Shown one piece after another: positions 14,505 to 63,810 of a stretch of DNA of 64,000 nt (its first letter is position 1; the number at the start of each line of letters is the position of its first letter). The notes under the pieces were generated by a model that was not told the origin of the DNA, ran no database searches, and saw nothing but the letters and a program-made list of their open reading frames with translations. The position numbers and the translations under genes were made by a program. The DNA comes from Tagaea sp. (GTDB lineage: Bacteria; Pseudomonadota; Alphaproteobacteria; CACIAM-22H2), in contig CBDIIB010000005.1 of the NCBI GenBank assembly GCA_965279525.1, positions 1,216,001 through 1,280,000 of the forward strand. Reading direction: 5' to 3'.

Positions 14505-14933
14505 CTGGGGATTGGTGTGAGTCCGGGGTACAAGTCGCTGTTCATCCACAGGGTCGAAAATCGGTCCCCAAACCGTATACACGCCAAGCGGCACTTCAGC
14601 ACAGGGCGAACCGAATCCTGCCAACCGGAAGGATAGCGGGGACAATCGTTCGATGCGGGGTTATCCCCGGAATTCAGACGCAACAATGCGCGCTATGCCG
14701 GGCGGCAGGTGCTCCGCAACTGCGGCCTTTTCCCGGTGTTCGCGGGCAGGCATCCACAGTTCCCGGCCAAGCGCTTCCCGACGGGGACGAAGCCGGGACA
14801 AGATGGATTCCCCGGCATCCACAGGCACCCATCTACCTCCACTACCTAGAAAGTATTTAGATTCTTGTTTGGTAGAGGGCGTGTCTCGCGGCTACACTCC
14901 GCCCGCTTTTCCGCCCAGAGGTGTTTTGCCTAG
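14505..14933. other. oriC: Chromosomal replication origin (oriC)
   Basis: Intergenic between DUF299 and hemE, the canonical alphaproteobacterial position. DnaA-like boxes: TCATCCACA 14542-14550, GCATCCACA 14750-14758 and 14815-14823, TTATCCCCG 14661-14669; TCCCCA W-type boxes 14506-14511(-) and 14565-14570. DnaA-trio-like CTACCTCCACTACCTAG then an AT-rich patch at about 14833-14875; four GANTC sites; genes mostly transcribed away from this point. Confidence 0.85.
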
Positions 14934-16004
14934 ATGATCCAGCCGCGTCCGTCCCCGTCCCAGGCCAAACCGTTCGTGCGCAGCCTTGCCGGCGAGATCC
15001 ACGAGCGCCCGTGCTTCTGGCTGATGCGCCAGGCCGGCCGGTACCTGCCCGAGTATCGCGCCACGCGTTCGCAGGCCAACGGCTTCGTCGATCTGTGCCT
15101 CCGGCCCGATCTTGCCTGCGAGATCACGCTGCAGCCGCTGCGGCGCTATTCGATGGATGCCGCGATCCTGTTTTCAGACATCCTGATGGTTCCCTACGGC
15201 CTCGGCCAGGGGCTCGAATTCCGCGAAGGCGAAGGCCCGGTCCTCGACGCCGTGCGCGATGCGGCCGGCATCGCGAAGCTGGAAGCGGGTCTGGCGGATT
15301 TCCAGACGCGCGTGGCGCCGGTCTACGAAACCGTATCGCGCGTCCACGCGAACCTGCCCGGCACAACGACATTGATCGGCTTTGCCGGTGCCCCCTGGAC
15401 GGTCGCGACGTACATGGTCGAAGGCGGGACCAGCAAGGATTTCGCCAACGTGCGGTTGCTGGCCTATCGCGACCGGCCGGCCTTCCGCCGGCTCATCGAC
15501 CTGCTCGTCGAGGCGACGACCGGCTACCTGCTGCGCCAGGTCGCGGCCGGTGCCGAAGCGCTGCAGATCTTCGACACGTGGGCCGGCATCCTGCCCGAGC
15601 TGGAATATGCCGAATGGGTGCTGGCACCGGTCGCCAGGATCGTGGCCGCACTCAAGGCCAAGCATCCCGAGATCCCGGTGATCTTCTTCCCGAAGGGCTC
15701 GGGGCTGCTCTACGAGAAAGCCGCCGCGATCCCGGGCGTGGCAGCGCTTGGCATCGATACGGCCGTCCCGCTGGAGTTCGCAAAGCGGCTTCAGAAGCTC
15801 GCGACCGTGCAGGGCAATCTCGATCCGATCGTGTTGACGGCCGGCGGCGAAGCGCTCGACCGGGCCGCGACGCGCATCCTCGACGCGCTCGGGTCGGGTC
15901 CGTTCGTGTTCAATCTCGGACACGGCGTCATCCCGCAGACCCCGCCGGAGAATGTGGGCCGGCTTGCCGATCTGATCCGCAGCTGGCGCGCGCGCAAGGC
16001 CTAG
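14934..16004 (+). CDS. hemE: Uroporphyrinogen decarboxylase
   Basis: WLMRQAGRYLPEYR, AILFSDIL, GFAGAPWT, FNLGHG. Confidence 0.97.
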   Translation: MIQPRPSPSQAKPFVRSLAGEIHERPCFWLMRQAGRYLPEYRATRSQANGFVDLCLRPDLACEITLQPLRRYSMDAAILFSDILMVPYGLGQGLEFREGEGPVLDAVRDAAGIAKLEAGLADFQTRVAPVYETVSRVHANLPGTTTLIGFAGAPWTVATYMVEGGTSKDFANVRLLAYRDRPAFRRLIDLLVEATTGYLLRQVAAGAEALQIFDTWAGILPELEYAEWVLAPVARIVAALKAKHPEIPVIFFPKGSGLLYEKAAAIPGVAALGIDTAVPLEFAKRLQKLATVQGNLDPIVLTAGGEALDRAATRILDALGSGPFVFNLGHGVIPQTPPENVGRLADLIRSWRARKA

Positions 16005-17539: not shown

Positions 17540-17567
17540 TTGACATCGCCCCGGGATCGGCTAGATT
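17540..17567 (+). promoter_or_regulatory. sigma70 promoter of rho
   Basis: TTGACA-N16-TAGATT, with a GCTAGA alphaproteobacterial -10. Confidence 0.65.
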
Positions 17568-17742
17568 GGCGGTCGGACGGGTGGATAGCCCGTTCTCGTG
17601 GCCGCTTTTACGTGCCGGCCGATCCTTCCCGACGACGATTTCCGAGGCTGCCCCGCGAACCGACAGACGCACGTCGTCTGGGTTTGCCCGAAAGCCCCAA
17701 GCCGGTCGCGGGCCCTTTCCCAACCCAGCCCCAGAAAAAAGA

Positions 17743-19131
<1,389 letters not shown>

Positions 19132-25020: not shown

Positions 25021-25383
25021 GTGGACGGCGATCCCAAACATTTCTACACCGCCCATGTCTTCGTCTGCACGAACGAGCGGCCGGCCGGCCATCCGCGCGG
25101 CTGCTGCAAGGAAAAGGGCTCGGAAAAGCTGCGCGACTACATGAAGGCGCGCGCCAAGGAACTTGGTCTGGGCCTGCCCGAGACGCGGATCAACACGGCC
25201 GGCTGCCTCGAGCGCTGCGAATTCGGCCCCGCCCTCGTGATCTATCCCGAGGGCGTGTGGTATTCGCCCAAGACGCGCGAGGACATCGACGAGATCCTGT
25301 CGGTCCACCTGCAGCAGGGAAAGCGCGTCGAGCGCCTGATGCTGAAATACGAGGACCGCGCCCCGCCCAAGCCCAAGGGCTGA
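25021..25383 (+). CDS. Thioredoxin-like [2Fe-2S] ferredoxin
   Basis: HVFVCTNER...GCC...AGCLERCEFGP...YPEGVWY. Confidence 0.9.
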   Translation: MDGDPKHFYTAHVFVCTNERPAGHPRGCCKEKGSEKLRDYMKARAKELGLGLPETRINTAGCLERCEFGPALVIYPEGVWYSPKTREDIDEILSVHLQQGKRVERLMLKYEDRAPPKPKG

Positions 25384-25394
25384 CCGGCGACACG

Positions 25395-26720
25395 ATGGAC
25401 CGCCCGACGATCTATGCGCCCGCCAGTGCCGCCGGCAAGGCCGGCGTGGCGGTCGTGCGCGTGTCGGGGCCGGCGGCGCGCGCTGCCCTTGCGGCACTTG
25501 CCGGAAACGTCCCCGCACCGCGCATGGCGACAATGGCGAAGCTTACCGATCCGGCCGACGGCGCCGCGATCGACGAAGCGCTCGTGCTGTGGTTCCCGGG
25601 TCCTGCAAGTTTCACCGGCGAGGATGTCGCCGAGTTCCACATCCACGGCAGCCGCGCGACGCTTGGCGCACTGCTCGCAGCACTGGGCCGGCAGCCGGGG
25701 CTGCGGCTGGCGCGGGCGGGGGAGTTCGCGCGCCGCGCCTTCGATGCCGGCAAGCTCGATCTGGCGCAGGTCGAAGCGCTCGCCGACCTGATCGCGGCGG
25801 AAACGAAAAGCCAGGCGCAGCAGGCGTTGCGCCAGCTCGGCGGCGCGTTGGGCACCGCCGTGGAAGGCTTGCGGGACAGGGTTCTGCGGCTGCGCGCACA
25901 GGCCGAGGCCGAGATCGATTTTCCGGACGAAGGCGACGTGCCCGGCGGCCTGATCGCGCGCATGCGCGCACCGCTCGCCGGGCTCGACGGCGATCTGCAA
26001 GCCTTGATTGCAGGGGCGGCGCGCGGCGAACGGCTGCGTGCGGGCTATACGGTGGCGATCCTGGGCGCGCCCAACGCGGGCAAGTCGAGCCTGCTGAACC
26101 GGCTTGCGGGCCGCGAGGCGGCGATCGTTTCCGAGACGGCGGGCACGACGCGCGACGTGATCGAGGTGCATCTGGATCTTGGCGGCTGGCCGGTGACGCT
26201 GTGGGACACAGCGGGCCTGCGCGATGTTTTGCCCGACGGTGCGCACGCGGCGATCGAGCTCGAAGGCATGCGCCGCGCGCGCCGGCGTGCCGAAGAAGCG
26301 GACCTGAAGCTCGTCGTGCTCGACGCGCGCGACCGCGCCCCGGATGCAAGCCTTGCCGACTACGCGCGCGACGGACTCGTCGTGTTCAACAAGGCCGATC
26401 TCGTCGAATCGTGCGCGGGGCTATGCGTATCGGCGTTGACGGGTGCCGGGATCGGCGAACTTGAATCCGTGCTGGCGGCACGCGCCGCGGCAGCACTTTC
26501 CGACGGCGACGGTGCGGCACCGCTCGTCACGCGCGCGCGCCATCGTGAAGCATTGGTCGACGTGCGCGCGGCACTTGCGCGTGCCGGCACGCTAGGCGAA
26601 GCGGAACTTGTCGCGGAGGAATTGCGCATCGCGAGCGAGGCGCTGGGCCGGATCGTCGGCCGGACGGGTGTTGAAGACGTGCTCGACCTGCTCTTCGCCG
26701 AATTCTGTATCGGCAAATAG
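25395..26720 (+). CDS. mnmE: tRNA modification GTPase
   Basis: SFTGED, GAPNAGKSS, GTTRD, DTAG, NKAD, C-terminal FCIGK. Confidence 0.97.
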   Translation: MDRPTIYAPASAAGKAGVAVVRVSGPAARAALAALAGNVPAPRMATMAKLTDPADGAAIDEALVLWFPGPASFTGEDVAEFHIHGSRATLGALLAALGRQPGLRLARAGEFARRAFDAGKLDLAQVEALADLIAAETKSQAQQALRQLGGALGTAVEGLRDRVLRLRAQAEAEIDFPDEGDVPGGLIARMRAPLAGLDGDLQALIAGAARGERLRAGYTVAILGAPNAGKSSLLNRLAGREAAIVSETAGTTRDVIEVHLDLGGWPVTLWDTAGLRDVLPDGAHAAIELEGMRRARRRAEEADLKLVVLDARDRAPDASLADYARDGLVVFNKADLVESCAGLCVSALTGAGIGELESVLAARAAAALSDGDGAAPLVTRARHREALVDVRAALARAGTLGEAELVAEELRIASEALGRIVGRTGVEDVLDLLFAEFCIGK

Positions 26721-26726
26721 AGAGGC

Positions 26727-26942
26727 TTACTTGGCCATCGCGGCGGCGCGCAGGATCTGCTTGCTCTGCAGTTTCATGCGCGTCTTCTGGTTCCACAGGA
26801 TGACCCAGCCGGGACCCATCTCGCGCGAGGCCTTGTCGTAGGCCTGGGCGGCGGTCGAGAAATCGTTCCCGGCAAAGACCGGCGCGCCCGGCGCGTTCTG
26901 CGGCAGGCCGGCTTTGTAGAACTGCACCAGATAGGTTTCCAT
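26727..26942 (-). CDS. Small hypothetical protein (71 aa)
   Basis: METYLVQFYKAGLP...; genome-like codon usage; fills the mnmE-mnmG gap. Confidence 0.6.
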   Translation of the reverse strand: METYLVQFYKAGLPQNAPGAPVFAGNDFSTAAQAYDKASREMGPGWVILWNQKTRMKLQSKQILRAAAMAK

Positions 26943-27102
26943 TGCGGGTGACCCTGTCGGTAAGTCCGATGCCCAAAAGATAATCCAGCGTGTCCTTTCT
27001 GTCTCGGGATAAATAATTGATAACACTCATAATTTTAGATAAATTGCAAAATGCGATCCGCCATGAATATGCAAACATATGATTTGATTAACCAATTTCC
27101 GA

Positions 27103-27118
27103 TGTTTGCCGGGAAACA
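27103..27118. other. parS-like palindrome (variant)
   Basis: TGTTTGCCGGGAAACA within GATGTTT...AAACATC, directly upstream of the mnmG promoter, where alphaproteobacterial parS sites lie. Confidence 0.65.
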
Positions 27119-27141
27119 TCCCGCCCCCTGCCGCGCGCGAA

Positions 27142-27170
27142 TTGACGGACCCCGGCCGACTACCTAGGTT
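27142..27170 (+). promoter_or_regulatory. sigma70-type promoter of mnmG-rsmG-parAB
   Basis: TTGACG-N17-TAGGTT, ending 6 bp before the ATG (near-leaderless). Confidence 0.5.
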
Positions 27171-27176
27171 GCGCCG

Positions 27177-29036
27177 ATGAACCGCGAACGCGACTTCGAT
27201 GTGATCGTGATCGGCGGCGGCCATGCCGGCTGCGAGGCCGCGGCTGCGTCGGCGCGCGCGGGTGCTGCCACGCTGCTGCTGACGCTCGATCCTGCGAAGA
27301 TCGGCGAGATGAGCTGCAATCCGGCCATCGGCGGGCTCGGCAAGGGCCATCTGGTGCGCGAGATCGACGCGCTCGACGGCATCATGGCGCGCGCGATCGA
27401 TCGGGCCGGCATCCAGTTCCGCATGCTCAACCGCTCGAAGGGCCCCGCCGTTCGCGGGCCGCGCGCGCAGGCGGATCGCAAGCTCTATCGCCTGGCGATC
27501 CAGCAATTGCTGGCCGGACAGGCGAATCTGTCGATCCGGCCGGGTGAAGCGGCGGATCTGGAAATCGGCGCCGACGGCCGCGTGGCGGCCGTGCTGACGG
27601 CCGACGGCGTCCGGCTTTCCTGCGGTGCCGTCGTGCTGACGACCGGCACGTTCCTGCGCGGTCTCATCCATATCGGCCTCGAGAAGATCCCGGCCGGACG
27701 GGTCGGCGAAAAGCCGTCGCTCGCCCTGTCCGAAACCCTTTCGCGGCTGGGCTTCCCGCTCGGCCGGCTCAAGACCGGCACGCCGCCGCGCCTCGACGGG
27801 CGCACGATCGGCTGGGCCGGGCTGGAGATGCAGCCGGCCGACGACCCGCCTGAGCCGTTCTCGACGCTGACCGACCGGATCGACGTGCCGCAGATCGCGT
27901 GCGGCATCACCTATACCTCGCCCGCCACGCACGACATCATCCGGGCGAACCTGCATCAGGCGCCGATGTATTCGGGCCAGATCGAGGGCGTGGGGCCGCG
28001 CTATTGCCCGTCGATCGAGGACAAGGTCGTGCGTTTCGCCGGGCGCGAGCGCCACCAGATCTTCCTCGAACCCGAGGGCCTGGACGACGACACGGTCTAC
28101 CCGAACGGCATTTCCACGTCCCTGCCCGCTTCCGTCCAGCTCGAAATCCTCAAGACGATCCAAGGGCTTGAGAACGCCACGATGCTGCGCCCGGGCTACG
28201 CGATCGAGTACGATTTCATCGACCCGCGCGCCCTCAAACCCACGCTGGAAACGATCCGGCAGCCGGGTCTCTATCTCGCCGGCCAGATCAACGGGACCAC
28301 CGGCTACGAGGAAGCGGCCGCCCAAGGGCTGGTTGCCGGGCTCAATGCGGCACTGACGCTTGGCGGCTCGGGTCCGTTCGTGCTGGACCGGGCGGACGCG
28401 TATATCGGCGTGATGATCGACGATCTGGTCACGCTGGGAACGCGCGAGCCCTACCGCATGTTCACGAGCCGCGCGGAATATCGCCTGACCCTGCGCGCCG
28501 ACAATGCCGACCAGCGCCTGACCGAGCGCGGGATCGCGGCCGGTTGCGTTGGCAATGCCCGGCATTCCGCGTGGACCGACAAGAAAGCCCGCCTTGCCGA
28601 GGCTCGCGCCCTGGTCGAGCGGCTGAAGGAATCGCCCCCGAAGCTCGCCAAGCGTGGCTTTGCGGTCAACCAGGACGGGGTCGCGCGTTCGCCGCTCGAC
28701 CTTCTGGCGCTGCCCGGCGTGGATTGGACTTCCCTCGTCGCGGTCTGGCCGGAGCTGGGGGAGCTGCGTCCGGACATCGCCGGCCAGATCGGGATCGACG
28801 CGCTCTATCGCGGCTATCTCGCCCGGCAGGATTCCGACATCCGCGAGTTCCGCCGCGACGAAGGCCTCGAACTGCCGGCCGATCTCGACTATGCGGCGCT
28901 GACGGCCCTGTCGAATGAGATGCGCCAGAAGCTGGCCGCCGTGCGCCCGGCCACGCTGGGGCAGGCAGCCCGTATTTCCGGCGTAACGCCGGCAGCACTG
29001 ACAATCCTGCTGCGCCACGCAAGGCGGGCAGCGTGA
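27177..29036 (+). CDS. mnmG: tRNA uridine-5-carboxymethylaminomethyl modification enzyme GidA
   Basis: [55 protein letters not shown]. Confidence 0.98.
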
Positions 29037-29644
29037 AACCCTCCGATTTCGCCAAGCAGACCGGTGTTTCTCAAGAAACAGTCGAGAAACTGGTCACATA
29101 TCAACGCCTTCTCGAAAAATGGCAGGCCAAGATCAATCTCGTCTCGGTGACCACGCTGCCGGACGTGTGGATCCGCCATTTCTACGATTCCTGGCAGGTG
29201 CTGCCCACGCTGGGCGACGCGCCGACGGTCGCCGATCTGGGGGCCGGGGCCGGATTCCCGGGCCTTGTGCTGGCGATCTGCGCGCCGGAGAAGACCATCC
29301 ACCTGGTCGAATCCGACGCGCGCAAATGCGCGTTCCAGATCGAGGTCGTGCGCGAGGTCGGTGCGAAGAACGTACGGATCCACAACACCCGCGCCGAGCG
29401 GCTGGCGGGCGAACTCAAGGTCGCGGCCGTCACGGCGCGCGCCCTCGCACCGCTGACCGACCTGCTCGAACTCGCCGTGCCGCTGCTCGAGCCGGGCGGG
29501 TTATGCACGTTTCTCAAGGGGGCGACGTACAAAGCCGAATTGACCCAGGCGGAAAGCGCGTGGCATATGCGCGTGGCCGTTGCCGCTTCGCTGACCGAAC
29601 CGGACGCCGCCCTCTTCACGCTTCGGGAAATCGCGCGCAAGTGA
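29033..29644 (+). CDS. rsmG: 16S rRNA m7G527 methyltransferase GidB
   Basis: [28 protein letters not shown]. Confidence 0.95.
29065..29080. other. parS-like palindrome within the rsmG 5' end (variant)
   Basis: TGTTTCTCAAGAAACA encoding VSQET, at the position where canonical parS encodes VSRET in many alphaproteobacterial RsmG. Confidence 0.6.
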
Positions 29645-30456
29645 CTGACAACAATCACAAAAAGCCGCGCATCTTGGCGATCGCCAACCAGAAGGGCGGG
29701 GTCGGCAAGACGACGACCGCGATCAACCTTGCGACCGCCCTCGCGGCCGTCGGCAAGAAGGTGCTCGTCGTCGATCTCGATCCGCAGGGCAATGCTTCGA
29801 CCGGCTTCGGCATCCCGGCCGACCAGCGCGAGGTCGGTTCCTACGACGTGCTGATCGGCAATGCGACACCGGGCGAGGCGATCCAGCAATCGATGATCCC
29901 GGGCCTGACGGTGATGCCGGCCACGCCCGATCTTGCCGGGGCCGAACTTGAGCTCGTCGATCTCGAGCGGCGCGAATACCGCCTCGCCGACGCGCTGGTC
30001 GAGGCGGTGGCCAACATGAATCTCGACTACGTGATGATCGATGCCCCGCCGTCGCTGGGGCTGCTGACGCTCAACGCGCTGGTTGCTGCCGATGCGTTGC
30101 TGGTGCCGTTGCAGTGCGAGTTCTTCGCGCTCGAAGGGCTTTCCAACCTGATGCGCACGCTCGACCGCGTGCGCGACCGCTTCAACCCCAGGTTGACCCT
30201 GCAGGGCGTGGTGCTGACGATGTTCGACAAGCGCAACAACCTTTCCGAGGCGGTCGCCGCCGACGTGCGCCAGCATTTCGGCGACGTCGTCTACGAGACC
30301 GCGATCCCGCGCAACGTGCGCATCTCCGAAGCGCCGTCGCATGGCAAGCCGGTCCTGCTCTACGACCTGCGCTGCCCGGGCTCGCAGGCCTATGTGATGC
30401 TGGCAAGCGAACTGCTGAAGCGCGAAAGCATGCTCGCGACGGACCGCGCCGCATGA
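29641..30456 (+). CDS. parA: Chromosome partition ATPase
   Basis: NQKGGVGKTT, DLDPQGNAS, DAPPSLG, QCEFFALEG, SEAPSHGKP; GTG start. Confidence 0.97.
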   Translation: MTDNNHKKPRILAIANQKGGVGKTTTAINLATALAAVGKKVLVVDLDPQGNASTGFGIPADQREVGSYDVLIGNATPGEAIQQSMIPGLTVMPATPDLAGAELELVDLERREYRLADALVEAVANMNLDYVMIDAPPSLGLLTLNALVAADALLVPLQCEFFALEGLSNLMRTLDRVRDRFNPRLTLQGVVLTMFDKRNNLSEAVAADVRQHFGDVVYETAIPRNVRISEAPSHGKPVLLYDLRCPGSQAYVMLASELLKRESMLATDRAA

Positions 30457-31352
30457 CGCCGGCCGACGGAAAAAAGGGATTGGGCCGCGGCCTCTCCTCG
30501 CTGCTCGGCACGCCCAACCCCGGCCAGGCCGGCGCAAACGATGCCCAGCGCGGTACGCGCAACCTGCCGGTGGGCAAGATCCATCCCGGCCGCTTCCAGC
30601 CGCGCCGCCATTTCGATGCGGCGGCACTCGCCGAACTCACCGAATCGATCAAGGCGCAAGGCGTGCTCGCCCCCATCCTCGTGCGCCGCGATCCCAAGGA
30701 TCCCACCTCGTACGAGCTGATCGCCGGCGAGCGGCGCTGGCGTGCCGCGCAAGCCGCCCAGCTCCACGAGATCCCGGCGGTCGTGAAGGATCTTTCCGAC
30801 CGCGAAGCGCTGGAAGCCGCCCTCGTCGAGAACCTGCAGCGCCAGGACCTCAACGCCATCGAAGAGGCGCTCGGCTATCGCCGGCTGATGGACGAGATGA
30901 AGTTCACGCAAGAGCGCGTCGCGGAAGCAGTGGGCAAGAGCCGGCCGCATGTCGCCAACACGCTGCGCCTGCTCGACCTGCCGGCATCGGCGCAGAAGCT
31001 GCTGGGCGAAGGCAAACTTACGCCCGCACATGCGCGCCTCGCATTGACCGCGAAGGATCCGGCGGTGTTTGCCGACATCATCGTGCGCGAGGATCTGAGC
31101 GTGCGCGCCGCCCAGGCCCGCCTCAAGGAAGCGGCCGATCCGGCGCAAACGAAGAAGAAGCTGAAAGGTGGCGGCAGTGCCGGTGCGCGCGATGCCGACA
31201 CGCGCGCGATCGAGCGGCGGCTGACCGAATCGCTCGGCCTCAAGGTCGAGCTCAAGCCCCGCAAGGGCGGTGCGGGCGAGCTCGTGCTGCATTACGGGTC
31301 GCTCGACCAGTTCGACGACCTGCTGGCCCGCCTCGAGCGCGAGCCGGACTGA
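30453..31352 (+). CDS. parB: Chromosome partition protein
   Basis: KGLGRGLSSL, FQPR, AGERRWRA, ENLQRQDLN, GKSRPHVANTLRLL. Confidence 0.97.
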   Translation: MTPADGKKGLGRGLSSLLGTPNPGQAGANDAQRGTRNLPVGKIHPGRFQPRRHFDAAALAELTESIKAQGVLAPILVRRDPKDPTSYELIAGERRWRAAQAAQLHEIPAVVKDLSDREALEAALVENLQRQDLNAIEEALGYRRLMDEMKFTQERVAEAVGKSRPHVANTLRLLDLPASAQKLLGEGKLTPAHARLALTAKDPAVFADIIVREDLSVRAAQARLKEAADPAQTKKKLKGGGSAGARDADTRAIERRLTESLGLKVELKPRKGGAGELVLHYGSLDQFDDLLARLEREPD

Positions 31353-58644: not shown

Positions 58645-59231
58645 CGCCGCTTCAGCGCGAGGTTGAGGGATTCGACCGTCGGCTTGCCGTCGGCGGCGAG
58701 TGCAAACACATGCAGCGCGTAGAGATCGAGCTTGTCCGGCGGATCGCCGGTCATGTCCCAGCCGCGTGCGGCGGCGTAAACCGTGCGGAACACGCCGCGA
58801 TGGGTCACGCACAGCGTGGAGCGGCCGGATGCCGCGACCTCGGCCAGCAGCGGCAGCACGCGCGCCTGCACCATGCGCGGCGATTCCCCGTGCGGCGGCG
58901 TGAAGTCGAGCCCGCGCGCCTCGTTCGCCGCGAATGCCTCGCCCTGTTCGGCGCGCAGCTGCTCGATCATGCGGCCTTCATAGGCGCCCCAGTCCATCTC
59001 GACCAGGCGCGGATCGACCTCGGCCGACAGGCCGAGCGCTTCGGCCGTCTGCCGGCAACGCTGCAAGGGCGAGCACAGCACGCGCCAGTCGGCGAACTCG
59101 CGGGGCACACGCCGCGCTTTCAGGAAGGCGAGCGAGCGTGGCGCGATCTCGATGTCCGCACGCCCCTGCAGGCGCTTGGCCGCGTTCCACGCGGTCGGAC
59201 CGTGGCGCATGAAGGCGATGTACGTGGTCAT
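58629..59231 (-). CDS. Histidine phosphatase (PGM family)
   Basis: MRHGPTAWN, SPLQRC, EMDWGAYEG, GES, THRG. Confidence 0.88.
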   Translation of the reverse strand: MTTYIAFMRHGPTAWNAAKRLQGRADIEIAPRSLAFLKARRVPREFADWRVLCSPLQRCRQTAEALGLSAEVDPRLVEMDWGAYEGRMIEQLRAEQGEAFAANEARGLDFTPPHGESPRMVQARVLPLLAEVAASGRSTLCVTHRGVFRTVYAAARGWDMTGDPPDKLDLYALHVFALAADGKPTVESLNLALKRRWRKS

Positions 59232-60376
59232 CGACGCCTGGCCCTGCAACCGGCCAGCACGGCATCGATCCGGGCAGCGGCCCCGGCAAGGTCGTGCGTG
59301 GCCGCCACCTTCGCGGCGGCGTTTCGGCCGAAACGCGCGCGAAGCCCGGGATCGTCCAGCAATCCGCGGACCGCGACGGCGAAGGCACCGGCATCGCCGG
59401 CGGGAACGAGCCGGCCGGTCGCACCATCGTCCACGATTGCGGCCACGCCCGGTCCCGCACCCGCGACGACGGGCAAGCCGCTTGCCTGCGCTTCGAGGAT
59501 CGCCATGCCGTAGGCCTCGTTGATCGCCGGCCAGACGAACAGGTCGCTTGCCGCCATCAGGCCTTCGAGCGAGGCCTCGTCGAGCTGGCCCGCCTGCACG
59601 ACGCGCGGACCGAGTGGAGCGAACGCCGCGGCCACTTGCGCGCGCGCCGGTCCGTCGCCAACGGTGACGAGCTGCCAGTCGTCACCGCCGAGCCGGTCGA
59701 GTGCCTGGGCGAGCACCTCGTACGAACGCAGCTTGTCGCCGGCGCGTTGCATGGCGACGGCCAGCAGCCACGGCCGGGCGGCGTCGATCTTGAGCCGGCG
59801 GGCCCACGCGTCGCGATGCATGTCGCGCGCGCCGGCGGCGGCGGCATAGGGTCGGGCGTCGAGGAACGGCGGCAGGAGTGCGCGCGTTGCCGCAGGCGAA
59901 AGATGCGCCTCGAGAGCCGGGGCATCGCCCGGATTGAGCGAGACGACGCCATCGGCGCGTGCCAGTGCCGCCAGCACGGCGCGATGTCCGGGATCCCACG
60001 TGCCGCCGGCGCGCTTCATCGCGACCGACGCCTCGACGACGACATAGGGAATGCCCAGTGCTTGCGCGACGGCCGGCCCGAGATGGTCGGGCGCCTTGTA
60101 ATAGAGGTGATAGGTGAGCCAGAGATCGGGCCGCTGGTGCGCCGGGCCGGATCGCCAGCGCCGGACGAGGCGCCCGGCCAGATAGCCGCCGATCTTCGCC
60201 AGCCGCGACTGGCGTGCGGAATCGCCCGTGCCGTCGCGGCTGCGCAGGGTACCGGCCCATTCCACGTCGTGGCCGGAGAGCCTCAGGGCCGCATCGAGCA
60301 GCCGCGCCACGCGCCGGTCGCCGGAGGGCACCGGATGGTCGGGCGGCTTCAGCGGGGCATAGGCGGCGATACGCAT
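59228..60376 (-). CDS. GT4-family glycosyltransferase
   Basis: YAPLKPPDHPVPSGDR, YHLYYKAPD, EAYGMAILEA. Confidence 0.9.
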   Translation of the reverse strand: MRIAAYAPLKPPDHPVPSGDRRVARLLDAALRLSGHDVEWAGTLRSRDGTGDSARQSRLAKIGGYLAGRLVRRWRSGPAHQRPDLWLTYHLYYKAPDHLGPAVAQALGIPYVVVEASVAMKRAGGTWDPGHRAVLAALARADGVVSLNPGDAPALEAHLSPAATRALLPPFLDARPYAAAAGARDMHRDAWARRLKIDAARPWLLAVAMQRAGDKLRSYEVLAQALDRLGGDDWQLVTVGDGPARAQVAAAFAPLGPRVVQAGQLDEASLEGLMAASDLFVWPAINEAYGMAILEAQASGLPVVAGAGPGVAAIVDDGATGRLVPAGDAGAFAVAVRGLLDDPGLRARFGRNAAAKVAATHDLAGAAARIDAVLAGCRARRR

Positions 60377-61581
60377 GCGTCGAGCAAGTCGTACAGCGTC
60401 TCCAATCCGCGCGCGAAGGGAAAGTCGCGCCGCACGCGGTCGTTGGCGGCCGTGCCGAGGGCCATCCGCCGCGCCGGATCGCCAAGCAGCCCGTCGATCG
60501 CCGCGGCCAGGGCCGGAACATCGCCCGGCGGAACGAGCACGCCGCTTGCGGGGCCGACCAGTTCGGGGATCGCGGCGATATCGGTCGCGACAAGCGCCAG
60601 CCCCTGGCTTGCCGCTTCCATCAGCACGTTGGGCAGGCCGTCGCGGTCGCCGTCGGCGGCGATGCGGCTTGCGAGCACGAACAGGTCGGCGCTTCGCAAG
60701 GTCGCCAGCACGTCGGCCTGGTCGCGTGCACCCCGCCACTCGATCCGGTCGGCAATGCCGGCGGCCCGCGCCTGCGCGTCCAGTGCCGCCTTGAGCGGTC
60801 CGCCGCCGACATGCACGAAGCGCCACGCACGCGATGTGCCGACGCGCGCAAGTGCCGCGATCAGTTCGTCGTAGCCCTTCTTGGCGACGAGCCGGCCGAC
60901 CGACACGATGACGACCGGATCGCGCGGATCGCGCCCGTCGCGCGCGGGCCGCGCGGGCGGATCGGGCCAGCGCGCGAAATCCAGCCCGTGATAGACGAGC
61001 CGTACCTTGCCGGGGCCGAGCGCTTCGAGATGGTCGAAGCCCGCTTTCGTGCAGGTCGTGCACCACGCCATCGCGGCGAGCTTCTCGCGCTTCTCCCAGT
61101 CGGGCGTGGTCCAGATGTCCTTGGCGTGCGCCGAAGCCGACCAGCCAAGCCCGCAAATGGAAGCCGCGTAGCGCGCGACCGATCCCGGCGTATGGATGAA
61201 GTGGGCGTAGAGATGTGCCGTCTGCGGCCCCATCTCGGCCGCCAGCACGCACGCCTGACCGAAGCGCCGGCCGCGGTTGGGTGTGGGATCGCGCCGCCAA
61301 TCCGAAAGGAAGGTCGCGCGCGCGGCCGGGTAGCCGGGCAGGCGGCGTGCGCGCCACCAGCCCGCGAGCACGCGCAGCGGCTCGCGCCACAGATACTCGG
61401 GCAGGTAATTGACCTTGGCTTTGAGCGCACCGGCAAGGGCATGCCGGTGCGTGTCGGTCGGATGGCGCAGCGACCAGAGCTCGAGTGCGAGCCCGCGTTC
61501 CTCGAGCCCGACAAGCTCCTGCGCGATGAAGGTCTCGGACAGGCGGGGCCAGCCTTTGACGATTACGGCAAGGCGGGTCAA
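60349..61581 (-). CDS. GT4-family glycosyltransferase (WcaL-like)
   Basis: KGWPRLSETFIAQE, HAKDIW, VGRLVAKKG, DGLPNVLMEA; TTG start with GGAG RBS. Confidence 0.9.
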   Translation of the reverse strand: MTRLAVIVKGWPRLSETFIAQELVGLEERGLALELWSLRHPTDTHRHALAGALKAKVNYLPEYLWREPLRVLAGWWRARRLPGYPAARATFLSDWRRDPTPNRGRRFGQACVLAAEMGPQTAHLYAHFIHTPGSVARYAASICGLGWSASAHAKDIWTTPDWEKREKLAAMAWCTTCTKAGFDHLEALGPGKVRLVYHGLDFARWPDPPARPARDGRDPRDPVVIVSVGRLVAKKGYDELIAALARVGTSRAWRFVHVGGGPLKAALDAQARAAGIADRIEWRGARDQADVLATLRSADLFVLASRIAADGDRDGLPNVLMEAASQGLALVATDIAAIPELVGPASGVLVPPGDVPALAAAIDGLLGDPARRMALGTAANDRVRRDFPFARGLETLYDLLDACVSPPMPR

Positions 61582-61619
61582 GCTTACGTCTCCCGATTCG
61601 CGCTCCGGATGCGCCTTCG

Positions 61620-62183
61620 TCAGGCGGCACCCATCAGGCCCGGTGTCAGCACGCTGTCGGACAGCACCGGATAGCGCCTCGATTCGAAGAGCTGATAGTG
61701 CCACCATTCGCGCCGATAGAAATCCCAGCCGGCCGCCGACATGAGCCCGAGCAGCATGTGCCGGTTTCGCTGCGCCTCGACGCCCACTTCGGTGCTGCCG
61801 TGATACGACAGCTCGGTGAAGGCGTCGAACTCGGTGCCCATGTCGAGTTCGGCGCCGCTCGCCGCATCGACGAGCGTGAGATCGACGGCCACGCCGCGCG
61901 AATGGGGCGAGCCGCGCCGCGGATCGGCGACGAAGTCGGGATCGGGGTTGAAATCCCACAGCTTCCACTGCGCTTCGGACGGGCGGAACGCGTCGAAGAT
62001 CTTGAAGCGCAGCCCGAGCGCCGCGGCAAGCTCGATCGCACGCGCCATATGGCGCGCGGCGTCGACATGCAGGAACGCCTCGGCGCGCGCATAGACCGGT
62101 TTTCCCGTGAAGTTGGCGGGTGTCGCGTAGCGCAGATCGATCGCGACTTCGTAGTCCGGCGGGGCAATGGCGACGAGCGTCAT
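61620..62183 (-). CDS. ddpX: D-alanyl-D-alanine dipeptidase (VanX family)
   Basis: YAT.NFTG, DAFRP, SPHSRGVAVD, DMGT.FD, EWWHY. Confidence 0.92.
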   Translation of the reverse strand: MTLVAIAPPDYEVAIDLRYATPANFTGKPVYARAEAFLHVDAARHMARAIELAAALGLRFKIFDAFRPSEAQWKLWDFNPDPDFVADPRRGSPHSRGVAVDLTLVDAASGAELDMGTEFDAFTELSYHGSTEVGVEAQRNRHMLLGLMSAAGWDFYRREWWHYQLFESRRYPVLSDSVLTPGLMGAA

Positions 62184-63285: not shown

Positions 63286-63393
63286 AATTTTCTTACAGCT
63301 ACTGCCCTTATTCCCACTTGCCGAGTAATCGCGATCTTTCTATACACCCGGCGTTACCGCCGGATCCGGCGCTATTTCCCGAGGAACACGAAA

Positions 63394-63810
63394 ATGTCTG
63401 AATTCAAGTCCAATGATGTTCTTGCGTTGACCGCGAATATTGTCGCTGCCCATGTCTCGAAGAATTCGCTGCCGACGGATGAACTGCCGGGCCTGATCCG
63501 CCAAGTCTACCAGACGCTGTCGACCGTCGGGACCACGGCGGCGCCGGTCGAGCGGCCGCAACCGGCCGTGCCGATCAAGCGCTCGGTGACCAACGACTTC
63601 ATCGTCTGTCTGGAGGACGGCAAGAAACTGAAGATGCTCAAGCGACACCTGAAGGCCGCCTACAACATGTCGCCCGAGCAGTACCGCGAACGCTGGGGTC
63701 TGGCGCCGGACTATCCGATGGTGGCGCCGAACTACGCCAAGAAGCGCAGCCAGCTGGCGCGCGATCTGGGTCTGGGCACCAAGTCCAAGCGCCGTCGCGG
63801 CAGCGACTGA
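63394..63810 (+). CDS. mucR: Ros/MucR-family zinc-finger regulator
   Basis: PAVPIKRSV, CLEDGKKLKMLKRHL, YRERWGL..DYPMVAPNY. Confidence 0.95.
   Translation: MSEFKSNDVLALTANIVAAHVSKNSLPTDELPGLIRQVYQTLSTVGTTAAPVERPQPAVPIKRSVTNDFIVCLEDGKKLKMLKRHLKAAYNMSPEQYRERWGLAPDYPMVAPNYAKKRSQLARDLGLGTKSKRRRGSD

Follow-up and report, generated by a model that had tools for sequence, protein, structure and literature searches.

Covariation of ParB residue 201 with base pair 6/-6 of the parS-like sites suggests a co-evolved partition variant in the Tagaea clade

The centromere site parS and residue Gly201 of ParB are among the most conserved protein-DNA recognition features of bacteria, and how such a pair changes without losing segregation has been studied mainly through engineered ParB-to-Noc intermediates. 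Here, we describe the chromosomal partition locus in a 64-kb stretch of DNA (the window; 67% guanine plus cytosine, GC) from an uncultured alphaproteobacterium of the Tagaea clade (Rhodospirillales), in which ParB carries Ala at position 201 and both parS-like sites are altered at the base pair that this residue faces. The closest described systems are ParB of Caulobacter and the related protein Noc, which binds the Noc-binding site (NBS). According to the accessible text of Jalal et al. 2020 (PMC7383237), the part of that paper to which all citations of it below refer, Caulobacter parS is contacted by Q162, G170, K171, S172, R173, N178, G201 and R204. Of these, G201 has no side chain and adjoins thymine -6, where no specific contact is possible; in this numbering adenine 6 is base 7, and thymine -6 is base 10, of the 16-mer. 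In Noc, an Arg at position 201 hydrogen-bonds guanine -6, and ParB variants with Arg201 prefer cytosine at position 6; one such variant, RTAR (PtoN4), comes to prefer a hybrid site that combines features of parS and NBS (PMC7383237). In a scan of 160,000 variants, the residue at 201 of parS-specific proteins was G, C, S or T, with G the most favoured (PMC7383237). Ala at this position is named in no functional class in the accessible text, and a search of the supplement (mmc1.pdf) gave no match to RTAA, G201A or alanine.

The window contains two parS-like sites, one in the gap upstream of mnmG (site 1) and one inside rsmG (site 2; Table 1). They are the only places in the 64 kb that lie within three mismatches of the canonical parS 16-mer (chance expectation 0.03), and none of 100 shuffled versions of the window gave two or more such matches. 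No other match to TGTTT-N6-AAACA occurs in the window (expected 0.00). An earlier, sequence-only reading of this DNA had reported that canonical parS is missing from the window, and indeed a scan of the full 64 kb with TGTTNCACGTGAAACA returned nothing within two mismatches. The same reading described both sites as changed at bases 7 and 10. The positions, arms and bases that it gave hold up, but each site deviates from the canonical sequence at three bases, since site 1 has C/G at bases 7/10 together with an additional C6>G (core GCCGGG) and site 2 has T/A together with an additional G9>A (core CTCAAG). Both are imperfect palindromes without the canonical CACGTG core. What they keep are the TGTTT/AAACA arms, the inverted-repeat form, an origin-proximal place and positions orthologous to those of the canonical sites in outgroup genomes. 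The C6>G change of site 1 is otherwise found only in one relative (L001), while another (L003) has the perfect TGTTTCCCGGGAAACA; the G9>A change of site 2 is common to eight genomes.

The helix-turn-helix of the window ParB reads GKSRPHVANTLRLLDLPASAQKLLGEGKLTPAHARL. Its top match in the PDB is Caulobacter ParB (E 4.5e-57), and the alignment to entry 6t1f is gapless in this region (chain index + 10 gives the native numbering). It places the window residues R/T/D/A on Caulobacter R173/T179/A184/G201, so that the Ala noticed by the sequence-only reading in place of Gly falls on G201. The four specificity residues named in that reading thus align as expected, except that position 184, which varies in ordinary ParBs, is Asp and not Ala. 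Seven of the eight listed DNA-contact residues are conserved, the exception being G201, and it is this departure in a protein otherwise classed as ParB that is the point of the finding. The translation also contains the N-terminal motif KKGLGRGLSSLL and the cytidine triphosphate (CTP) box IAGERRWRAA, which we take to be the LGRGL-type motif and the GERRxR CTP-binding box, respectively. Assignment to Noc was rejected, as the protein scores 209.3 bits against TIGR04285 (cut-off 315) and carries R/T/D/A rather than Q/K/K/R. It is the sole parB-like gene product of the operon, with no Noc-type paralogue encoded beside it. The sequence-only reading further held that G201 reads the inner position of the site; the residue does face thymine -6, but it makes no specific contact there (PMC7383237).

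To place Ala201 among relatives, homologues were compared at several depths. Among clusters at least 67% identical to the window ParB, 24 of 25 have Ala at 201 and one (P0008) has Arg, while all 93 homologues with at most 59% identity and a listed motif have Gly; P0120 and the fragment P0089 lie outside these counts. Searching species-representative genomes with a 26-protein clade alignment yielded 80 loci. Eighteen of them (L001-L018), mostly titled 'Tagaea sp.' metagenome-assembled genomes, encode ParBs with 68-97% identity, and the other 62 (L019-L080) ParBs with 43-59% identity, here called outgroups. All 18 clade loci and the window have Ala201. In an alignment of the 79 extracted ParBs, which counts the window as a clade row and does not include L032 and L070, column 201 is A in 19/19 clade rows and G in 60/60 outgroup rows. 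In the ParB tree, the A201 rows form one clade (Shimodaira-Hasegawa-like approximate likelihood ratio test, SH-aLRT, 99), whose stem is long (0.62 changes per column). Its sister group (L019, L020, L022, L024-L026) is uniformly Gly201, and all sites found in the loci of this group have a CACGTG core. In a diverse set of 149 ParBs representing 50% identity clusters, 147 have G at position 201, one has S, one has T and none has A, and R173 is present in 149/149. A201 is therefore a trait of the monophyletic 'Tagaea' clade of Rhodospirillales and not of one genome. The sequence-only reading had treated the rewired pair as a property of this genome, where it is present, but the trait extends to the whole clade.

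Several relatives stand out in their own right. P0008, which is 82% identical to the window ParB and lies on a contig of 2,788 bp, has Arg at 201 (LSPRHGR), the residue with which Noc reads guanine -6; its sites are predicted to have CCGG cores. The two non-Gly201 proteins among the 149 representatives, P0181 and P0209, have Ser and Thr, the residues tied to tolerated or dual specificity in the mutational scan (PMC7383237), and could act as independent natural tests of the covariation. A deeper subclade (L014-L018, P0015-P0023) has changed the contact residue Ser172 as well (GKNR, GKQR, GKDR, SKTR) and has GAHGR in place of AHAR; its sites are still of the clade type. By eye, no clear pattern was seen between the type of site and either residue 200 (P/A/G) or the GK[S/N/Q/T/D]R variants.

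The sites follow the same division as residue 201. Sixteen clade loci and the window, that is 17 genomes and 34 sites, could be compared, as L006 and L010 do not extend far enough. All 17 genomes with enough flank have both orthologous sites, the arms are kept in 34/34 sites, and the clade pattern is TGTTTC-[T/G/C]-CG-[A/G/C]-GAAACA. Among the 68 half-sites, the base at position 7 is T in 40, G in 16, C in 12 and A in none. Consequently, A is absent from base 7, and T from base 10, in all 34 sites, and none of the 17 A201 genomes keeps canonical parS at these places. The outgroup loci have TGTTTCACGTGAAACA or near variants with CACGTG at the same two positions. A broader search for sites with GTTTC/GAAAC arms, allowing at most one arm mismatch, found an ACGT core in 0/41 sites in 368,862 clade bases compared with 123/175 sites in 1,014,472 outgroup bases. 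Residue 201 and base pair 7/10 thus switch together on one well-supported branch. The question raised by the sequence-only reading, whether canonical parS persists near the origin, is answered in the negative for the 64-kb window and for the 369 kb of clade DNA around parAB. Neither a natural A201 ParB nor sites of the clade type were found described in the literature, including the accessible parts of PMC7333895 and PMC13371061, in a search that did not extend to subscription journals.

We propose that ParB and parS probably co-evolved at this locus into a variant in which the requirement at base pair 6/-6 is altered or relaxed. On the clade stem, Gly201, the residue of ParB helix alpha-6 that faces this base pair, was replaced by Ala, and the DNA-binding domain acquired a small number of further substitutions. 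The same base pair (bases 7 and 10) changed in both parS sites that the ancestor had near the origin, from the canonical TGTTTC-A-CG-T-GAAACA to TGTTTC-[T/G/C]-CG-[A/C/G]-GAAACA. In this model, R173 and the other conserved contact residues would still read the unchanged arms, so that ParB would continue to load at these sites. Given a side chain at 201, thymine at -6 would no longer be required and would probably be disfavoured, and any other base pair would be accepted. We infer from the sequences that ParB binds these sites and selects against canonical parS, with A201 as the cause. In our view, the sites still serve as the centromere, and A:T is no longer required at 6/-6. Because A never reappears at base 7, discrimination against thymine -6 has probably taken its place; a simple steric idea would be contact between the side chain of Ala and the methyl group of thymine. 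The sequence-only reading spoke of relaxed or shifted recognition. A relaxed requirement from which A:T is excluded fits the sites better than a clean switch, since T, G and C all occur at base 7 and A never does.

A similar outcome might arise by neutral relaxation, if ParB still bound canonical parS and, for other reasons, read base pair 6/-6 weakly or not at all, so that the sites drifted on the long stem branch and A201 was a tolerated, neutral passenger. G201 makes no base-specific contact in the Caulobacter structure, and parS binders in the mutational scan include proteins with C, S or T at 201 (PMC7383237). Within the clade, the site position accommodates three different bases, and other substitutions in the DNA-binding domain fall on the same stem branch, all of which would suit such drift. 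We nevertheless regard it as unlikely, as it sits poorly with what is seen outside and inside the clade. Position 201 is strongly constrained where parS is canonical, because it is Gly in 147/149 diverse ParBs and in 60/60 outgroups, and the retention of A:T in the outgroup sites (ACGT core in 123/175) indicates that the base pair is constrained there as well. Within the clade, all four ancestral half-sites lost A/T and no later change brought A/T back, and inside rsmG T/A is held against a strong codon bias, unlike what drift would produce.

Constraint on the DNA is visible in site 1, which is non-coding. Bases 1-5, 8, 9 and 11-16 are identical in 17/17 genomes and base 6 in 15/17, bases 7 and 10 each show three bases, and the flanks show up to four. 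This is the footprint expected of a palindromic binding site with two degenerate positions. It also bears on the idea that both sites are decaying relics and that the working centromere, a canonical or other parS, lies beyond the examined regions. The extra mismatch in each window site (C6>G and G9>A) would be in line with decay, and the small share of each genome covered leaves room for a centromere elsewhere. Decay would, however, not be expected to spare the invariant bases of site 1 across 17 genomes with ParBs down to 68% identity while the flanks vary, nor to retain rare AT-rich codons in a 67% GC genome. Moreover, no CACGTG core with parS arms occurs in the 369 kb of clade DNA around parAB, and none in the origin-proximal window of 64 kb. 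We therefore consider relic sites quite improbable.

Site 2 lies within a coding sequence and allows changes in the DNA to be compared with changes in the protein. In the outgroups, this part of rsmG reads GTT TCA CGT GAA ACA and encodes VSRET. The clade encodes either VSRET, via TCT CGA, TCG CGC or TCC CGA, or VSQET, via TCT CAA. It is the third positions of the Ser and Arg codons that have changed, mostly synonymously and often symmetrically (T..A, G..C). In 9/17 clade genomes VSRET is retained and synonymous third positions alone have changed, which does not bear out the covariation of residue 201 with Arg or Gln in VS[RQ]ET that the sequence-only reading had suggested. In five genes of the window, TCT accounts for one of 52 four-fold Ser codons, that one being inside site 2, and CGA for 0/150 in the same codon count. 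Since TCT and CGA are nearly absent from the window genes, the T/A kept in rsmG runs against translational preference. In the eight genomes with the TCT CAA form, the five codons of the site are invariant and neighbouring synonymous positions vary. Changes that are mostly synonymous, use very rare codons and are often palindromic suggest selection on the DNA inside rsmG.

The rsmG sequence that follows site 2 is unusual as well. At 29081-29145, the codons (GAG AAA CTG ... TAT CAA CGC CTT CTC GAA) are AT-rich for a 67% GC genome and conserved across the clade, and GAGAAAC, beginning 3 bp past site 2, repeats the right half of the site. This suggests a further constraint at the level of DNA or RNA at the 5' end of rsmG.

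Pressures unrelated to ParB were also weighed. Restriction-modification or a compositional pressure against CACGTG could have driven the change of the sites, with ParB following or indifferent, and the hexamer is indeed below expectation (18 observed and 32 expected in the window; 73 and 125 in the clade). Unrelated palindromes are equally depleted, however (CTCGAG 187 against 328, CAGCTG 79 against 134), 18 copies of CACGTG remain in the window, and the sites most often carry T/A, not G/C, as the replacement. With so many copies left and a depletion no greater than that of CTCGAG or CAGCTG, we rejected avoidance of CACGTG as extremely improbable. GC pressure as the sole cause was rejected too, given that T/A is the most frequent replacement and that site 2 uses the rarest codons.

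Several points weigh against the co-evolved variant that we favour. The covariation is a single evolutionary event, so that its phylogenetic sample size is one. Other substitutions were fixed on the same stem, approximately F158M, a change of position 160 to F, L215F and an L-to-R change near 232 (positions assigned by hand in Caulobacter numbering), and these could carry the effect. The steric model is weakened by the finding that proteins with Cys, Ser or Thr at 201 retain binding to canonical parS (PMC7383237); because of this, a C-beta atom by itself need not exclude thymine -6. The missing A at base 7 rests on about 14 changes at bases 7/10 within the clade, counted by hand on the topology of the ParB tree and not by a tool, and is only suggestive. 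Binding of the sites by ParB is deduced from their sequence, and the window sites, each one base off the clade pattern, may be bound more weakly. Finally, the comparison covers 64 kb of the window genome and about 20 kb of each relative, and canonical or other sites could lie elsewhere.

With these points in mind, a stronger form of the co-evolved variant is offered tentatively and with clearly less confidence, namely that the clade has its own centromere 'dialect', in which ParB, through Ala201 with or without the co-fixed changes, rejects canonical parS and accepts any other pair at 6/-6. If so, the system would be orthogonal to the parS of nearly all other bacteria. It would also be a natural, still-evolving intermediate on a Noc-NBS-like path, on which one relative is already at Arg201.

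Two further sequences in the window resemble partition sites in part. At 59320-59335, within a glycosyltransferase open reading frame (ORF; 59228-61630, minus strand) about 28 kb from parB, lies the perfect 16-bp palindrome CGTTTCGGCCGAAACG, which has GTTTC/GAAAC arms like parS and a GGCC core. About 0.02 occurrences of exact GTTTC/GAAAC arms at such spacing are expected per 64 kb (hand arithmetic from base composition), and the palindrome could be a third, odd ParB site or a product of chance. The sequence TATTTCCCGAGGAACA at 63373-63388, 6 bp before a ros/mucR-family regulator gene (63394-63810), is two mismatches from a clade-type site, and its left half is identical to the Noc-binding half-site; this resemblance is probably due to chance.

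The gene context of the locus is conventional (Table 1). Scores against NCBIfam profiles are given with their curated cut-offs. Overlaps between stop and start codons run through the chain from mnmG to parB: the start of rsmG overlaps the stop of mnmG by 4 bp, parA likely begins at a GTG that overlaps the rsmG stop (GTGA), as read from the sequence, and the ATG of parB overlaps the parA stop (ATGA). The top NCBIfam matches of the parA product are ParA_partition, MinD and RepA, each below its curated cut-off. Upstream of mnmG, at a distance of 8-15 kb, lie hemE, hemH and rho, and leuS lies downstream. We take hemE-hemH-rho to be the usual origin-proximal neighbourhood in Alphaproteobacteria, which would place the locus near the origin. 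The parB gene thus follows parA downstream of mnmG-rsmG, with its proximity to the origin indicated by the hemE/hemH/rho neighbourhood.

Table 1. Coordinates of the partition locus, its parS-like sites and flanking genes in the 64-kb window.
Feature	Coordinates	Strand	Description	Evidence
hemE	14934-16004		upstream of mnmG	
rho	17566-19131		upstream of mnmG; hemH also in this upstream group	
mnmE	25257-26720		part of the mnmE-mnmG-rsmG-parA-parB order	profile search
parS-like site 1	27103-27118		TGTTTGCCGGGAAACA; in AT-rich gap, 58 bp upstream of the mnmG ATG (27177)	
mnmG (gidA)	27177-29036	+		TIGR00136, E 9.9e-241, 800 bits (cut-off 525)
rsmG (gidB)	29033-29644	+	host of site 2	TIGR00138, 136 bits (cut-off 99.5)
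parS-like site 2	29065-29080		TGTTTCTCAAGAAACA; inside rsmG, GTT TCT CAA GAA ACA = V S Q E T	
parA	29641-30456	+	Soj-type partition ATPase	KGGVGKTT Walker box
parB	30453-31352	+		TIGR00180, 192.7 bits (cut-off 58.45)
Ala codon GCA replacing Gly201	31026-31028	+	in parB	translation and alignment to Caulobacter ParB

Two non-coding stretches of this region deserve mention. Directly upstream of site 1, in the gap between mnmG and a small ORF on the minus strand (26727-26945, no Pfam match), lie about 90 bp of very AT-rich DNA (27010-27100). Several positions of this DNA are conserved in the clade, and it is probably a divergent promoter region. Before hemE, a lower-GC intergenic stretch (14540-14930) contains the DnaA-box-like sequences GCATCCACAG (twice) and TCATCCACA (once), although the count of such sequences in the whole window is not above chance. 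We regard this stretch as a candidate replication origin, located about 12-14 kb from both parS-like sites.

Taken together, the clade appears to offer a natural case in which an essential-type centromere has changed at the base pair faced by a known specificity residue. The site is degenerate there today, and within a gene the change can be seen as synonymous substitutions that compensate each other. One practical consequence is that genome scans for canonical parS would wrongly call 'no parS' in these organisms. The clade could also supply a second, orthogonal ParB-parS pair for the labelling of DNA.

ParB-parS pairs of secondary chromosomes and plasmids have parS sequences of their own, and the family has thus diversified its centromere more than once. 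Those pairs are paralogous and their sites differ widely, in contrast to the clade described here, in which the pair belongs to the primary chromosome and a single base pair has changed. Compared with the canonical pair (Caulobacter crescentus, PDB 6t1f and 6s6h, TGTTTCACGTGAAACA), the pair of the window shares the family TIGR00180, the mnmG-rsmG-parA-parB context, both site positions, the arms, residues K171, S172, R173, N178 and R204, the CTP box and the LGRGL motif. It differs in having Ala at the near-universal Gly201 and, across the clade sites, a 6/-6 pair that is never A:T and varies between T, G and C. With Noc-NBS of the Firmicutes (TATTTCCCGGGAAATA; Q173/K179/K184/R201), the clade has in common a change at position 201 and at base pair 6/-6. 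In addition, some clade sites have a CCGG core, as in L003, whose TGTTTCCCGGGAAACA differs by one base from site 1 of the window. Unlike Noc, however, the window pair keeps R173 and the G at base 2 and is without Lys179, Lys184 and Arg201, and its protein is the parB of a parAB operon and not a paralogue. The closest parallel may be the engineered variant PtoN4 (RTAR), in which a change at 201 alone shifts the preference at base 6 and R173 keeps the G at base 1 (PMC7383237). There, the residue at 201 is Arg; here, the natural residue is Ala, and the natural sites are degenerate at base 6/-6 and not fixed on C. In this respect, the clade looks like a natural counterpart of the engineered intermediates between ParB and Noc.

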